Source: Ignavibacteria bacterium RIFCSPLOWO2_12_FULL_56_21 | Lineage (GTDB): Bacteria; Bacteroidota; Ignavibacteria; UBA10030 | Assembly (NCBI GenBank): GCA_001802945.1 | Contig: MHAK01000077.1 | Location: forward strand, 37,520-101,519 | Length of the DNA stretch: 64,000 nucleotides | Direction of reading: 5' to 3' | Shown here: positions 29,047 through 60,139 of the stretch, in pieces | Layout of the letters: each line of letters begins with the position of its first letter | Position numbering within the stretch: position 1 is the first letter of the stretch | Notes under the pieces: generated by a model | Told to the model about the DNA's origin: nothing | The model's database searches: none | What the model saw: the letters and a program-made list of their open reading frames with translations, nothing else | Translations under genes and position numbers: made by a program

Positions 29047-30030
29047 TCATTGAACCTGTGGAGCTGTTTCCGCGGGGACATCCTGCGGGATCATGGCTTC
29101 CTGTTCCTTCATCCACTGGTCGAACTCTTCCTGTGTCTGTACCGTGACAAAGCCTCTCATGCGGTAATGGCCCAGACCGCAAAGTTGCGCGCATGCGATT
29201 TCTGTGGGGCTGTCCGGTGAAGCCTTTACGTCGAAGATCCCAGCTGCGGTGAGCTGCTGAACCGCTTCCTCGGAAAAGGAATATCCTTTCCCGACGATCA
29301 CATTGCCGTCCTTGTCCGCATAATCCTCCGCCGCAGAGTATGGCCCCTGGAGTTCCCTGGGCAAAACGCCTTCACGAAGCGAATACCTGCGCACTAAACG
29401 ATCGCGGATCTCAGCGGTGGTCATTGTGGGCGTGAACCACAATCGCACAGTCTCGCCCGGAATGGCATCCTGCTTCACGCGGAACAAGGGAAGTCCGAAG
29501 CTGTGAATGACGTCCTTCGTCGTGAGCCGAACGATCACGGGCTTGTTCACCGGAAGGTTCATTTGGTTCACGGAGACAATATCATCCTTTGCTGAAGGGT
29601 CCGTCCGGTCCAGGCCGATGGGATTCTCCGCGGAAACGAGCGATGCTATCGTCGTGCCGAATTCGCCGTCCGCCCCCGGATAATGGATATTCCAAATGAA
29701 TTGTTCGGCGACGACACGGACGACCGTTGCTGTATCATCGGGCGGAAATTCCGTGACGCGTGCGGACCAGAGCGGGAAGGCAAAGCCGACGAGAAGAACT
29801 ACCTCAAACACCGCGAGACCGGCTTCGAGATACGACGAAACGTGCGTCCGCACCCCGGTATAATTCGCAGCGCTCTGAGCACGACGCCGAAATCGATACA
29901 GTGTATAGATAAAAAACGAGCCCCAGCCTGCAAACAGCACGAACATCAACCAATGCACCACGCCGATCATCTGGTCGATATCCCCGCCATGAGCGGCGGC
30001 GTCGATGGGTAAACCAAGGAATTCCTTCAT
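29047..30030 (-). CDS. ctaC: Cytochrome c oxidase subunit II (CuA; no fused cytochrome c domain)
   Basis: Two N-terminal TM helices. CuA motif HSFGLP..CAQLCGLGHYRM. No CxxCH motif. Confidence 0.93.
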   Translation of the reverse strand: MKEFLGLPIDAAAHGGDIDQMIGVVHWLMFVLFAGWGSFFIYTLYRFRRRAQSAANYTGVRTHVSSYLEAGLAVFEVVLLVGFAFPLWSARVTEFPPDDTATVVRVVAEQFIWNIHYPGADGEFGTTIASLVSAENPIGLDRTDPSAKDDIVSVNQMNLPVNKPVIVRLTTKDVIHSFGLPLFRVKQDAIPGETVRLWFTPTMTTAEIRDRLVRRYSLREGVLPRELQGPYSAAEDYADKDGNVIVGKGYSFSEEAVQQLTAAGIFDVKASPDSPTEIACAQLCGLGHYRMRGFVTVQTQEEFDQWMKEQEAMIPQDVPAETAPQVQ

Positions 30031-54031: not shown

Positions 54032-54601
54032 TTATCCACGGATCGACAGAAAGTTTTTCAAGAGATCTTTCCCGAACTCCGTTGCAATCGACTCGGGATG
54101 AAATTGCACTCCAAAAACACGGAATCGCTTGTGCTGAACTCCCATGACGATACCGTTTTCGGTCCAGGCTGTCACTTCCAGATCGTGTGGCATTGTGTTC
54201 CGGTCGACGATCAACGAGTGATACCGGGTCGCGTTGAACGGCGACGGTATGCCGACGAAGATCCCACGTCCCGTGTGATGGATCTTTGAAGTCTTGCCGT
54301 GAACGATCTCCGGAGCTCGCACGACACTTCCGCCATATGCCGCACCGATCGACTGATGTCCAAGACAGACGCCAAGGATCGGGATCTCGGGCCCGAATGA
54401 CTTGATAACATCGACGGAAATTCCGGCTTCCTTCGGCGTGCAGGGTCCGGGTGATATAACAATGGCCGAAGGGGTCATGCGGCGGATATCCTCCAAGCTC
54501 ACTGCGTCATTCCGGACAACCTTTTGTTCTTCATTCAACTCTCCCAAATATTGGACGAGATTGTACGTGAAGGAATCGTAGTTGTCGATCACGAGCGTCA
54601 T
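54032..54601 (-). CDS. trpG: Anthranilate synthase component II (glutamine amidotransferase)
   Basis: IDNYDSFTYNLVQYL..GVCLGHQ..VQFHPES. ATGA overlap with trpE. Confidence 0.93.
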   Translation of the reverse strand: MTLVIDNYDSFTYNLVQYLGELNEEQKVVRNDAVSLEDIRRMTPSAIVISPGPCTPKEAGISVDVIKSFGPEIPILGVCLGHQSIGAAYGGSVVRAPEIVHGKTSKIHHTGRGIFVGIPSPFNATRYHSLIVDRNTMPHDLEVTAWTENGIVMGVQHKRFRVFGVQFHPESIATEFGKDLLKNFLSIRG

Positions 54602-56109
54602 ACCGTAGAATCCCCCGTTGAAGACGTTGACTCCTCTACCGCTCTCAGCGTTGCACCGAGTTTTTCCATGGTCTCCTGATACTCCCGCTCCGGCCGCGAA
54701 TCCGCCACAATGCCCGCCCCCGCCTGCAGCGACACCATGCCAGCATGTGCGACGATGGTGCGAATGGCAATGCAGGAATCCATGTTGCCGGAAAAGTCTA
54801 TATAGCCGACAGCTCCTCCATAGACTCCTCTGCGTATCGGTTCCAGTTCAGCGATGATCTCCATTGCCCTGATCTTCGGGGCTCCGCTCAGTGTTCCAGC
54901 GGGAAAACACGCGTAGAGCGCATCCAATGCCGTGACATCGGGTCGGAGCTCACCACTGACCGTCGACACCAGGTGCATGACGTGCGAAAAAGCTTCCACG
55001 GACATGAATTCGTCCACCTTCACCGATCCGTACGCGCAGATCCGTCCGAGGTCGTTCCGTCCCAGATCGACCAGCATGAGATGTTCTGCCCGCTCCTTTT
55101 CGTCCTCAGAGAGTTCCTTCCGCAACGCTTCGTCCTCCGTCTTCGAAGCTCCCCTACGGCGTGTTCCCGCGATCGGTCGCGTTTCCACTCTTTTCCCTTC
55201 AACACGAACCAGCATCTCAGGAGACGACCCGATGATGGAAAGTCCGTCCATGTCGATGTAGTACATGTACGGGGAAGGATTGATCCTTCGCAAGTTCCGA
55301 TACAGTGTGAACGTATCGCCCGAAAAGGGCCGGCGGATGCGCTGTGATAGCACGACCTGGAAGATGTCCCCTGCCCGGATGAAATCTTGCGATCGCCGGA
55401 CCCAGGACTCGAACTGCTCCCGGGGCGTTGCGGTGACCCGCACATCGGACGAACGGGGAGATAACAACGGAGGTTGAAGAGGACTGAGCAGGCACGTCCG
55501 CAGGCGTTCGATTTCTGCGATGGCCTTGTCGTATTCGCTTCGGATAAGCTTCGGCGAACGCTCCCCTTCCGGAATGTAACCGTTGGAGACTAGAAAGACC
55601 TCTCGCCGAACATTGTCAAAGATCAGGACCGTGTCGCAAAACAGCAGACTCGCGTCAGGAAGGTCAGTATCATCGACCTTAGCGCACGGAACGTCCTCAA
55701 CGAGCCGGATAGACTCGTAGCCGAAATAGCCGACAGCTCCACCGGTAAGACGCGGAAGACCCGGTACGTGAACGGTTTTGAAGTGCCGGAAGATGGAATT
55801 AAGAGCTTTCAGAGGATGGTCGTTCGGCGAGACGAGTTTTGGCAGAACGCGAACGTCCTCATGACGGATGTCGATCTCGAACGATCGTCCGTGAATGCGA
55901 AACACCATGAAGGGATCGACGCCGATGAACGAATACCGGCCGATCGACTCTCCTCCTTCGACGCTTTCGAGGAGAAAACTGAACGGAGAAAGGGAACGGA
56001 GCTTCAGGTAAACGGAAACGGGCGTCTCTGTGTCCGCCAGAAGTGTATCGAACACGGGGACAACATTGCCGGTTACGGAGAGACGCTCGAAGTCTTTAAA
56101 GGCTAACAT
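54598..56109 (-). CDS. trpE: Anthranilate synthase component I
   Basis: FLLESVEGGESIGRYSFIG (Trp-feedback block)..LVDLGRNDLGR..GAGIVADS. Confidence 0.95.
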   Translation of the reverse strand: MLAFKDFERLSVTGNVVPVFDTLLADTETPVSVYLKLRSLSPFSFLLESVEGGESIGRYSFIGVDPFMVFRIHGRSFEIDIRHEDVRVLPKLVSPNDHPLKALNSIFRHFKTVHVPGLPRLTGGAVGYFGYESIRLVEDVPCAKVDDTDLPDASLLFCDTVLIFDNVRREVFLVSNGYIPEGERSPKLIRSEYDKAIAEIERLRTCLLSPLQPPLLSPRSSDVRVTATPREQFESWVRRSQDFIRAGDIFQVVLSQRIRRPFSGDTFTLYRNLRRINPSPYMYYIDMDGLSIIGSSPEMLVRVEGKRVETRPIAGTRRRGASKTEDEALRKELSEDEKERAEHLMLVDLGRNDLGRICAYGSVKVDEFMSVEAFSHVMHLVSTVSGELRPDVTALDALYACFPAGTLSGAPKIRAMEIIAELEPIRRGVYGGAVGYIDFSGNMDSCIAIRTIVAHAGMVSLQAGAGIVADSRPEREYQETMEKLGATLRAVEESTSSTGDSTV

Positions 56110-56122
56110 TCGTTCTCAAAAT

Positions 56123-56190
56123 AATTTGCCACGAAGTCACGAAGACACAAAGGAAACACTGAATGTGAATCTTTCCTTCGTGAATTTGCC
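56123..56190. repeat. Multi-register inverted-repeat element C, flanked by an 8-bp direct repeat
   Basis: AATTTGCC-acgaagt-CACGAAG-a-CACAAAG..CCTTCGTG-AATTTGCC. The AATTTGCC copies at 56123-56130 and 56183-56190 are exactly 60 nt apart. Confidence 0.85.
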
Positions 56191-56202
56191 CGTCCTCGGC
56201 CT

Positions 56203-56346
56203 CGACCAGCGGTTCGACCCTTCGGTGAACTCAGGGTCGCTCTGAGCGACCGTAGGGAGTCGAAGGGCGACTTGCCTATCGGCTCGCTCGCCATTCCGAG
56301 CTTGCCTACGGCGGGTAAACTCCGTCGAGGGACCTCGGGCGAGGTC
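56203..56346. repeat. Second GC-rich hairpin / 30-nt tandem array
   Basis: GGTCGC/tctga/GCGACC at 56235-56251. AGTCG/aaggg/CGACT at 56258-56272. GACCTC/gggc/GAGGTC at 56331-56346. CTTGCCTA occurs at 56271 and 56301, 30 nt apart. Confidence 0.7.
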
Positions 56347-56393
56347 GGGATGTCGTTGTGGTCCTTCTTGTTTCAAAGTCTTCGAAGTATTAC

Positions 56394-56867
56394 TCAATGT
56401 CGGTCGGGTGAGGCAATGAACTCGCAGTTGCGCCCCTCAAACTTGACGACCCGGGAACGAAAGTCTTCGGGAACCGGTACGGGCTTGTCGGTTTTCGGGT
56501 CGAGCCACACGTGGTACGCCACATTTTCCGCTACAGCCTCTCCGGTATCTGCACGCTCCATGAGCCCTTCCATGGCAAAGCTGGTGTTCTTTATGAAGGC
56601 GATGCGTGTGCGTACGGTTAAGAGTTGGTCGAACAACGCCGGCGCCTTGTAGTTGATCTCATTTCTGACGAGCACGACTTTTGAAGCTCCGTTGATCATG
56701 TTGAGATCAATCTGCGCGCCGATGTTCTTCAGGTATTCAACGCGCCCCACTTCGAAGTAGAGAAGATAGCTACCGTTATGGACAATACCCTGCCAGTCCA
56801 CTTCGTAGTTGCGAACGCGGAGCTGGTTGGAAAAAGAGAACTTTGAGGCTTCCATGGTTGGGCGCAC
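56394..56867 (-). CDS. Acyl-CoA thioesterase, hotdog fold (YbgC/4HBT family)
   Basis: LRVRNYEVDWQGIVHNGSYLLYFEVGRVEYL. Confidence 0.85.
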   Translation of the reverse strand: MRPTMEASKFSFSNQLRVRNYEVDWQGIVHNGSYLLYFEVGRVEYLKNIGAQIDLNMINGASKVVLVRNEINYKAPALFDQLLTVRTRIAFIKNTSFAMEGLMERADTGEAVAENVAYHVWLDPKTDKPVPVPEDFRSRVVKFEGRNCEFIASPDRH

Positions 56868-56893
56868 ACCTAGTGGACCATTGTTGAATCAAA

Positions 56894-56994
56894 CCGCGAA
56901 TGAACGCTCATAAACGCGAGTAAGTATTATGTATAACAACCAAAAATCACTACCCAAAACGGCTAACGGTTTTGCAATTAGCGTACATTCGCGG
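56894..56994. repeat. Multi-register inverted-repeat element D
   Basis: Units CGCGAAT, CGCTCAT and CGCGAGT start at 56895, 56905 and 56915. CCGCGAATG (56894-56902) pairs perfectly with CATTCGCGG (56986-56994). Confidence 0.8.
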
Positions 56995-57006
56995 TCGTTT
57001 ACTTTC

Positions 57007-58117: not shown

Positions 58118-58181
58118 CACGAATTCACACGAATGATACACGAATTAGCACGAATGAAAGATTAAGTTCTGACAATTCGTG
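58118..58181. repeat. Multi-register inverted-repeat element E
   Basis: CACGAAT at 58118, 58128, 58139 and 58149, and a single ATTCGTG at 58175. Confidence 0.85.
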
Positions 58182-58372
58182 ACCATTTGCGTCAAAACTA
58201 TAGACAGCATTCATGTTCATTAGTGGACAACTCCTATAAATCGCGCTTCACCCAACTCGACTCACCTCAGAGCCAACTGCATGCCTGGTTTACGGTGAAG
58301 CAGTCAATAACCAACAACCAACAAGGAACAACCAATGAACAAGTGCGATTGTTTCGAAAGCCAAAAAGATAT

Positions 58373-58472
58373 CCACTAAGGGCCACGAGACACACGAAGG
58401 AAGAAATATATTCACCTTACCTTAGTGCCCCTTCGTGCCCCGGCTCTACCTCGCCTTAGTGGCCCTTCGTGG
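58373..58472. repeat. Multi-register inverted-repeat element F (likely the lnt terminator)
   Basis: CACTAAGG, CACGAGAC and CACGAAGG at 58374, 58384 and 58393. CCTTAGTG, CCTTCGTG, CCTTAGTG and CCTTCGTG at 58420, 58430, 58454 and 58464. On the minus strand the structure is followed by ATATCTTTTTGG. Confidence 0.85.
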
Positions 58473-58480
58473 AAGAATCT

Positions 58481-60139
58481 TTACCGGCCGCGACCAAGTC
58501 GCTTGAACGCAACGAACATACTCAGAACTCCTGCCCCAAACAAATTCACAAGACCGACAACGTCGCCGTGGCGGACATAGAACGTCTCGTCCGTTCGTGG
58601 TATGACTACCCCCACCCATGCAGCCCGTTCGTAAAGTCTGGACCGCCGGACGATCCTTCCGTTCGGATCGACGATTGCCGAAACGCCTCCGTTTGCGCAC
58701 TGGACGATCCACCGGCGATTCTCTGCCGCACGGATAGACGCGAACGCCACATGTTGATACGCCCCAGAGGTTCTGTCCCACCATGAGTCATTTGTAATGA
58801 CGGTCAGTACTTGCGCCCCTTTGCGGGTGAATTCGCGCACATAGTTTGGATAGACCGACTCATAGCAGATCATGACGGACAATCGGACAGAATCACCGGC
58901 ACGCGTTCCGACGGTGTACACAGTAGTGTCTTTTCCCATTCCCCAACTGCTTATTCCGACCCCCCATTTCAGCGGTTCGATGAGAAAGCGGAATGTCTCG
59001 GCGTATGGCAATCGTTCAGCAAAGGGAACAAGGATGACCTTCTTATAGACAGGTCCGACGTTGCCGCTTGGGTCTATGAGCGTCGCCGAATTGTACGATT
59101 CATAGTAAGTATCCGAACCTGCAATCGGTTTGGCAGTCACCGGGGCCTCTGACTTCGCAAAGAACAGAACATGTGGAAGTCCGGTCATCACTGTGGCCTC
59201 GGCGTCGCGGGCAACAGATTTTACGTGGTCGAGATATGATCGATAGCCGGGCAGGAGCATCCAAACAGGGATGGCGGTCTCGGGCCACACCACAAGGTCG
59301 GGCCGTTCGGAAAAGAGAGTTCGCGTCAACGAATCCAGTAGGAGCATCTGGCGTTCATACGACGTCCATTTGTCCGTCGAGTTCATCCCCCATTTTTCCC
59401 AAGGATCGACATCGGGTTGCACAATCCCCACACGCGTTGGCGGAAGGACGTTTCCACGATCGACGTCGTCCATTCTCAACGATCCCCACAAGAGCGGTGC
59501 AACGTACACGGTTATCATAGCTGCTGCGAGCCCGAAAGTTCGTCCGCGAGAAGCCGGCCAGCGCCCCTCGGCGACTTCCATGAGGGCCAAATAGGCAAGA
59601 ACGTTGAACGCCAGGAGGTGGAGCGTCAATCCCTGGACTGACGTGAACTCGGCCATTTGGATCCTGAGGATATCGTTGGCCTGACTGTTCCCGACAGAGA
59701 TCCACGGAAAACTGAATTCACCCCGTGCATGGAAGTATTCGAAAGCGGTCCAGAAGCAAACGAACCCTATCAACCCAATAATGCGACCTGCCTTACGACG
59801 GGAATACCAAGCGGCGAGGACGAACGGCAAGAGAAAGAACGGATGTAGGAGCAAGAGTCCACCACCGGCGACCATCATCCAACCGTCATTGGCGTGCGTG
59901 AACCCTCCGGTCCAGTAGACGGTTGTCGCGTGAAAGACCATCAGGAAAAAATAGGTGAACCGGGCCATACGCCAACCGGATGCCTCGGCATCGAGGACCG
60001 TGAAGAATGGAATAAAGGCGATGAATGCGAGGGACGAAATGGGAGAGGGCGGGAACGACAGTCCCAGGAGCAGCCCCGACAGCACGGACCGTGCAACGGG
60101 AGATGTGTAAAGTCGCGAAAGAAGAGTCTGTGCGTCCAT
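58481..60139 (-). CDS. lnt: Apolipoprotein N-acyltransferase
   Basis: Multi-pass N-terminal half plus a CN-hydrolase domain (VVWPETAIP; VMICYESVYP). Confidence 0.92.
   Translation of the reverse strand: MDAQTLLSRLYTSPVARSVLSGLLLGLSFPPSPISSLAFIAFIPFFTVLDAEASGWRMARFTYFFLMVFHATTVYWTGGFTHANDGWMMVAGGGLLLLHPFFLLPFVLAAWYSRRKAGRIIGLIGFVCFWTAFEYFHARGEFSFPWISVGNSQANDILRIQMAEFTSVQGLTLHLLAFNVLAYLALMEVAEGRWPASRGRTFGLAAAMITVYVAPLLWGSLRMDDVDRGNVLPPTRVGIVQPDVDPWEKWGMNSTDKWTSYERQMLLLDSLTRTLFSERPDLVVWPETAIPVWMLLPGYRSYLDHVKSVARDAEATVMTGLPHVLFFAKSEAPVTAKPIAGSDTYYESYNSATLIDPSGNVGPVYKKVILVPFAERLPYAETFRFLIEPLKWGVGISSWGMGKDTTVYTVGTRAGDSVRLSVMICYESVYPNYVREFTRKGAQVLTVITNDSWWDRTSGAYQHVAFASIRAAENRRWIVQCANGGVSAIVDPNGRIVRRSRLYERAAWVGVVIPRTDETFYVRHGDVVGLVNLFGAGVLSMFVAFKRLGRGR

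Follow-up and report, generated by a model that had tools for sequence, protein, structure and literature searches.

Among the described systems, the 23S rRNA IVS of Salmonella, Leptospira and Coxiella resemble the repeats reported here in having a long terminal stem, a purine-rich outer motif, tandem heptamers and a PF05635 ORF in the loop (PMC4990558), and they are likewise regarded as selfish and possibly mobile. Specifically, in the Coxiella 23S IVS the motif AGAAGA is followed by three tandem heptamers, the number of which varies, and by an S23p ORF, and the terminal stem measures 28 bp; the IVS is cut by RNase III at the first repeat and its authors discuss a mobile-element origin (PMC4990558). 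Our repeats also have features in common with the REP/BIME and REPIN-RAYT systems of Enterobacteria and Pseudomonas, i.e., short imperfect palindromes that are extragenic, non-coding, present in high copy number and often situated inside operons, that spread in trans, and that show patchy, lineage-specific expansions. With bacterial MITEs such as Correia/NEMIS, RUP and ERIC they share terminal inverted repeats, a size of 50-200 nt, intergenic dispersal and locations near start and stop codons, and with the cyanobacterial STRR and the Xanthomonas heptamer repeats they share intergenic tandem heptamers that sometimes occur as convergent arrays able to form hairpins. Finally, IS200/IS605-type elements (Y1 HUH) and their REP-like derivatives have hairpin ends and insert without duplication 3' of a motif, here YTTYG^YG, a likeness that applies only to one nested insert described below.

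The window, i.e., the whole 64-kb stretch of DNA that was analysed, is part of a 3.36-Mb genome (55.7% GC, 138 contigs), a groundwater bin of the Ignavibacteria/Bacteroidota type to judge from the names given to homologues of its TrpE, and it includes trpE (anthranilate synthase component I; 54598..56109, minus strand, 503 aa; PF04715, PF00425) and its upstream partner, a 4HBT-type thioesterase gene (56394..56867, minus strand, 157 aa; PF13279, PF03061), with a spacer of 284 nt between them. The 8-mer AATTTGCC is present exactly twice in the window, at positions 56123-56130 and 56183-56190 of the plus strand (60 nt start to start), and the 52 nt between the two copies have CACGAAG at the 5' end and CTTCGTG at the 3' end; the left copy is located 13 nt from the trpE ATG. 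Coordinates, strings and distances thus agree with an earlier note on this DNA, where the structure was named Element C. By chance 2.4 copies of the 8-mer are expected in the window and two were found, and a priori one would not expect all eight positions (8/8) to agree in fixed register at the two ends of an inverted repeat. We report that the 284-nt spacer is probably, as far as its structure is concerned, a stack of nested selfish hairpin repeats, such that the trpE leader is recent selfish DNA in a gene pair that was formerly coupled in translation.

The outer layer of the stack (Layer 1) is a gene-less copy, approximately 105 nt long, of a CACGAAG tandem-word hairpin family, and Element C is merely its trpE-proximal portion. 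Layer 1 begins with AAAATAATTTGC at 56118, continues with three words, a loop and three to four inverted words, and ends with a far terminus near 56385. Its outer, trpE-proximal terminus AAAATAATTTGC (56118-56129; assigned on the basis of family consensus and matrix score) holds the first 7 nt of the left AATTTGCC copy, which consists of the terminus spacer plus the first C of word 1, and the trpE start codon is 8 nt away. The left arm (56130-56153) is built from three tandem 8-nt words, CACGAAGT, CACGAAGA and CACAAAGG, and it is followed by the loop (56154-56174), where AAA/TTT at the edges lengthen the inner stem to 11 bp, and by the first inverted word CCTTCGTG (56175-56182), which pairs with word 3. 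The remainder of the right arm (56351-56385), defined as the flank after excision of the insert described below and with an approximate boundary, comprises the TG that ends a split word followed by TCGTTGTG, GTCCTTCTTG and a degenerate far terminus, TTTCAAAGTCTTC; its 8-nt period, nnTTnGTG, matches that of the left arm. Past the first inverted word the right arm has degenerated, each 8-nt word having 3 mismatches, and a weak score of 1.7-2.4 bits, reached by 3-5% of random 12-mers, was obtained for the far terminus, whose outer boundary is at approximately 56385. The reconstructed 104-nt element folds into a single long imperfect hairpin. The minus-strand hairpin of Element C itself has 11 bp including one G-U (-28.2 kcal/mol; z = -1.9 compared to shuffles, a modest gain), which is shorter than typical RNase III substrates. 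The fold of the spacer region has an energy of -105 kcal/mol over 301 nt (z = -2.8).

The termini were scored using a position matrix built from 312 other family termini. The left flank, AAAATAATTTGC, scores 9.15 bits, which corresponds to the 79th percentile of these termini and is reached by 0.04% of random 12-mers, and the left AATTTGCC copy fits the conserved family terminus at nine of ten constrained positions; the 12 nt to the right of the 52-nt core score -3.4 bits and are random-like. On the basis of the flank score, the left copy is therefore the element's own terminus plus the C of word 1 and not a duplicated target.

The origin of the right copy (56183-56190) became apparent from BLAST of the spacer against the genome and from MAFFT alignment, where 56180-56349 is 92% identical over 170 nt to contig C132, positions 29413-29582. 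The C132 copy is preceded by a CACAAAA-word hairpin and its junction reads ACTTTG|CC, without a direct repeat and with no matching copy opposite. The insert start, CCCG(T/C)CCTCGGCC (CCCGYCC), is conserved at 19 loci, and the start motif CCCGYCCTCGGCC is found at 19 loci nearly always directly after or inside a word. For in-silico excision the segment from CCCG... to ...CGGGR was cut out and the flanks were joined. At the present locus (contig C77) this gives CCTTCGTG AATTTG^TG TCGTTGTGG, i.e., a regular word array is regained, and the corresponding junctions are ACTTTG^TG CTTTTTGTGG at C132, ACTTTTG^TG at two sites in C112 and, together with a perfect terminus, CTTCG^TGG at C82; word arrays are regained also at C18, C40, C106 and C127. 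In total, nine insertion sites on eight contigs were restored, i.e., the one in C77 and eight others, and the target can be written YTTYG^YG. Because excision restores the word arrays, the insert corresponds to 56189-56350; AATTTG (56183-56188) represents the 5' portion of the second inverted word, which is split, and the insert starts with CC (56189-56190).

Layer 2 thus interrupts the second inverted word at AATTTG^TG and itself carries a third repeat. It is a GC-rich, REP-like composite of 162 nt (56189-56350) with an outer part in the form of a 39-nt-type hairpin, CCCGYCCTCGGCC...GGCGAGGYCGGGR, and a further repeat of approximately 124 nt in the loop. This third-level repeat, GCGGTTCGACCCTTCGGTGAACTCAGGG...CGTCGAGGGA, was placed at 56209-56332 by comparing long copies (C77, C132, C118, C45 and C82) with the 39-nt copies, and its boundaries are approximate. 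Shorter versions of the third-level repeat (GGTTCGACCCTTCGGTGAACTCAGGGTCG...) were seen at C118 and C45, with related pieces on many contigs, and it translates as spurious ORFs of the 'PFDSLRSLRA' type. The GC-rich hairpin repeat (CCCGCCCTCGGCC...GGCGAGGCCGGGG, basic unit 39 nt) inserts in or beside heptamer words of other repeats, and no duplication was seen at its loci (56189-56350 in the window, C112:40351-40440, C132, C18, C40, C82, C106 and C127). To our knowledge, a repeat that prefers the words of another repeat family as insertion target has not been described. In addition, about eight near-identical composite copies were found of a CGCAATG-word hairpin that already bears the GC hairpin after its first inverted word (C14:34290, C18:53902, C45:10851, C68, C90, C100, C118:3297 and C131), and nested composites therefore multiply as units.

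A hairpin similar to the ends of the insert flanks a Y1 transposase gene at C45:1415-1771. This resemblance, which concerns a hairpin of approximately 35 nt and is the only link between the insert and a Y1 transposase, together with the duplication-free insertion after YTTYG, suggests that the nested insert may be an IS200/REP-type passenger. For CTTTTGTG words, a Y1-driven insertion point without duplication is predicted at TTTG^TG.

The consensus of the CACGAAG family is AAAA(A/G)(A/G)(A/T)TT-nn-C-CACGAAG-n(1-3)-CACGAAG ... loop ... CTTCGTG-n-CTTCGTG-G-nn-AA(T)CTTTT, i.e., its terminal inverted repeats are made up of inverted word arrays and AAAAGATT/AATCTTTT termini. A genome scan gave 122 clusters of at least three CACGAR/YTCGTG words, 183 tandem-word clusters (36 within called genes, the others mostly intergenic) and 313 outward-facing tandem-word ends with a conserved A-rich terminus, and we put the size of the family at about 150 loci. 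Among tandem, convergent and divergent spacers, the intergenic clusters are divided roughly as in the background. The terminal double word CCACGAAK-N1-3-CACGAAK is present 135 times here compared to 0-31 times in 39 relatives (the reversed control gave 0), a patchy spread of the CACGAAK family that is typical of an expanding selfish repeat. A literature search returned no description of the CACGAAG family, and PF13366, the domain of the associated nuclease genes (see below), appeared only as 'unknown' in one catalogue entry.

Family termini are more common by stop codons than by start codons (145 vs 90) and are also closer to them (medians 36 vs 64 nt), which fits tolerated insertions rather than promoters. 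At approximately 15 of the 145 stop-side termini the terminus begins with the stop codon of the host gene (TAA-AAGATT), as seen in the window at 58472-58483, where the terminus contains the stop codon of a 552-aa lnt-like gene (58481..60139); either the stop codon comes with the element or insertion favours TA(A) targets. Two more family copies, 58118-58185 and 58383-58471, are located in the 445-nt spacer between the lnt-like and an aminotransferase-like gene. One of them has four CACGAAT words and one inverted word, while in the other CACGAAG and CACTAAG words alternate around a conserved GGTAGAGCCGGG linker, a sub-type found also at C63:181 and C20:8467.

The order thioesterase gene-trpE is kept in 14 of 40 relatives, with spacers ranging between -4 and +50 nt compared to 284 nt here; in eight of the 14 the spacer is -4 nt (ATGA overlap), and the thioesterase stop overlaps or abuts the trpE start. 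The stack is absent from all 14 syntenic genomes, and from all four same-genus genomes that have the gene. A base-exact empty site, as envisaged in the earlier note, was not found among the upstream regions of trpE in the relatives; since their genes overlap or are at most 50 nt apart, the stack is a lineage-specific insertion into an operon junction. Within the species, all ten strain-level contigs share the 284-nt spacer with 0-3 SNPs each, one of which (n = 1) is at 56170 in the loop of Element C, and among 5.8 billion proteins the next-nearest TrpE outside the species is 65% identical. Several public assemblies of the same species (loci L037-L040) have contig breaks inside the spacer, 130-240 nt upstream of trpE, which fits with repeats fragmenting metagenome assemblies.

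Of the alternatives to a stack of selfish repeats, the one that survives best is that the element has been domesticated, either with its outer terminus and last words acting as trpE promoter or AU-rich, SD-less leader, or with its phased words binding a regulator, and that it replaces the lost coupling. The terminus ends 8 nt from the ATG, approximately 12 other family termini have a predicted start at a distance of 3-16 nt, the words recur in phase every 8-10 nt, and, since the insertion destroyed the ancestral ATGA coupling, some compensation is plausible. However, a consensus scan gave no sigma-70-like promoter, the preference of the termini for stops over starts is that of tolerated junk, and no dedicated DNA-binding partner is known; we consider domestication improbable.

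The earlier note had also raised the possibility of a leader terminator or attenuator with three alternative 3' arms, which we considered in the form of a trp-specific control of trpE that answers to tryptophan. In favour of this, the hairpin immediately precedes trpE on the sense strand and can adopt several pairings that exclude each other, and in the minimum-energy fold the last word pairs with AACGAAUG, a stretch that includes the start codon. Yet the same architecture is present at more than 100 loci beside unrelated genes in all intergenic classes, such that the three arms are generic to the family, and the spacer is not conserved in any of the 14 syntenic relatives. Moreover, the spacer gave no Rfam match even at E values up to 10 (the whole window at the gathering threshold gave only a tRNA-Leu elsewhere), neither tandem Trp codons in a leader ORF nor a phased (G/U)AG array was seen in it, its GAG/TAG sites being irregularly spaced, no promoter-like site was found, and a search for a stem followed by a U-tract gave zero terminator sites in 55900-57000. 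Our ORF, triplet and Rfam searches thereby led to the same result as the earlier note, which had seen no Trp leader peptide, T-box or TRAP-type repeats in the 284-nt spacer, and an attenuator at this position is very improbable. A role of the family as terminators was also considered and rejected, there being no enrichment in convergent spacers and the stems being AT-rich. At 56100-56117 (minus strand), AACGAATG overlaps the trpE start codon and is one mismatch from a CACGAAT word; the last inverted word pairs with it in the minimum-energy fold and could occlude the AUG, and chance is the probable explanation.

For the target-site duplication, the flanks of 81 intact compact copies were compared. 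None of these has an abutting direct repeat of at least 5 nt and 71 have none at all, duplications of 2-4 nt being still possible, and for the 25-nt flanks the longest common direct substring is distributed as in mismatched flank pairs. Of the eight matching positions of AATTTGCC, four (TT, CC) are imposed by the two repeat families and four are free, which gives, as a rough estimate, a chance of 1-4% per element for an 8/8 match; this is unremarkable among approximately 150 elements yet somewhat unusual. The 8-bp direct repeat is a coincidence, with terminus spacer plus C on the left and a split word plus the CC of the insert on the right. The reading of the 52-nt core (56131-56182) as a complete miniature transposable element with AATTTGCC duplicated as 8-bp target site is consistent with a perfect 8/8 direct repeat that abuts a 7-bp perfect inverted repeat on both sides and with an element class that does look mobile, but it is already largely refuted and hardly credible, given that the left copy is a conserved family terminus, that the right copy ends with two bases of an independent repeat and begins with six that complete a word after removal of the insert, that the homologous C132 composite lacks a left partner, and that no other intact copy has such a repeat. 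What stands of the proposal of a miniature mobile element is a dispersed inverted-repeat copy that is absent from the syntenic relatives; the duplication and the core as the unit do not.

The stack of selfish repeats is accompanied elsewhere in the genome by copies that carry genes. The genome has 11-12 PF13366 genes (PDDEXK_3, 'GxxExxY', PD-(D/E)XK nuclease), most of which are bracketed by inverted tandem-word arrays with AAAGATT-type termini, each with its own word; CACGAAG/T words flank those at C75:46324-46671, C114:1175-1522 and C58:6785. Intact nuclease motifs (D...E/D-x-K) are present. Identity amounts to 60-64% among the three CACGAA-word proteins, 69% between the CACAAAG- and CACAGAG-word proteins and 62% between the CGCAATG- and CGCAGAG-word proteins, compared to approximately 30% between word groups, i.e., protein clades track arm words. 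In the relatives, all four sampled PF13366 genes are likewise flanked by inverted words. Inverted tandem words also bracket 14 genes for PF05635 four-helix '23S IVS proteins' in sister families, and none of the gene-carrying copies that share termini has a known transposase, their genes being of PF13366 or PF05635. Every PF13366/PF05635 cassette gene has an unusually strong G-run RBS (GGGGG, 5-8 nt before the start codon), and trpE and other host genes seen here have no obvious Shine-Dalgarno. A search for cargo between perfect tandem-word pairs was too strict and returned mostly ordinary genes between two separate elements. On either side of the seven Y1 (PF01797) transposase genes there are other GC-rich hairpins and no CACGAAG words, which makes a RAYT unlikely as mobiliser of the word family. 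A gene for RNase III is present in the genome.

The layout of the 23S IVS is thus found in the gene-carrying copies, while Element C shares the arms and the terminus and has no ORF. The 23S IVS differ in being located in helix 25 or 45 of 23S rRNA and in carrying an S23p ORF, whereas Element C is situated between the thioesterase gene and trpE as a gene-less member of a family with approximately 150 loci, and the CACGAAG cassettes carry a PF13366 nuclease. REP and REPIN-RAYT have a single palindrome where we find arrays of 7-8-nt words, and the associated gene is here a PD-(D/E)XK nuclease; a cognate Y1 gene flanked by the repeat is not seen for the word family and may apply to the nested GC insert. 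In contrast to MITEs, the word family has no detectable target-site duplication (of at least 5 nt), and among the copies examined there is no parent IS that combines a DDE transposase with the same termini. The STRR and Xanthomonas heptamers, on the other hand, have been described as simple tandem arrays that lack conserved A-rich termini as well as cassette genes.

As to mechanism, the gene-less copies would be spread in trans by the nuclease or IVS-protein cassettes. Transcription of trpE would still come from upstream of the thioesterase gene and read through the stack, as we infer because neither room nor a signal for a promoter was found. By analogy with the 23S IVS and REP, RNase III may cut in the long stems, or the stems may have a stabilising effect on the upstream message, and such processing or stabilisation would uncouple the two cistrons without sensing tryptophan. 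Taken together, we give these functional steps (mobilisation in trans, read-through and RNase III processing or stabilisation) a little less than an even chance of being right.

Everything can be combined into one joint reading, which we put forward tentatively and hold to be possible yet rather doubtful as a whole. The gene-less hairpins would be non-autonomous members of a largely undescribed class of mobile cassettes that includes the classical 23S IVS; a PF13366 nuclease or a four-helix IVS protein would recognise its own words, the AAAGATT terminus would be the processing site, and the hairpins would in turn serve as landing pads (YTTYG^YG) for a Y1-driven REP, forming a layered selfish ecosystem that splits coupled operon genes. 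Protein clades and arm words do co-vary here.

The locus itself is ordinary selfish DNA, and the family is an under-described, IVS-like and nuclease-associated variant of palindromic repeats. For trpE, a false lead is hereby removed, as there is neither a new trp attenuator nor a MITE that duplicates 8 bp. At the same time, the genome offers a clean and internally controlled case, where gene-less hairpins share termini and words with nuclease and IVS-protein cassettes, where the layout equals that of the 23S rRNA IVS, whose origin has been an open question since 1990, and where a second repeat uses the words themselves as insertion target. Recognition of the words by the nuclease would, if true, represent a new mechanism of mobilisation, and it would also explain the spurious ORFs of the 'IRVHSW' type and many of the assembly breaks in metagenome bins of the Bacteroidota/Ignavibacteria type.
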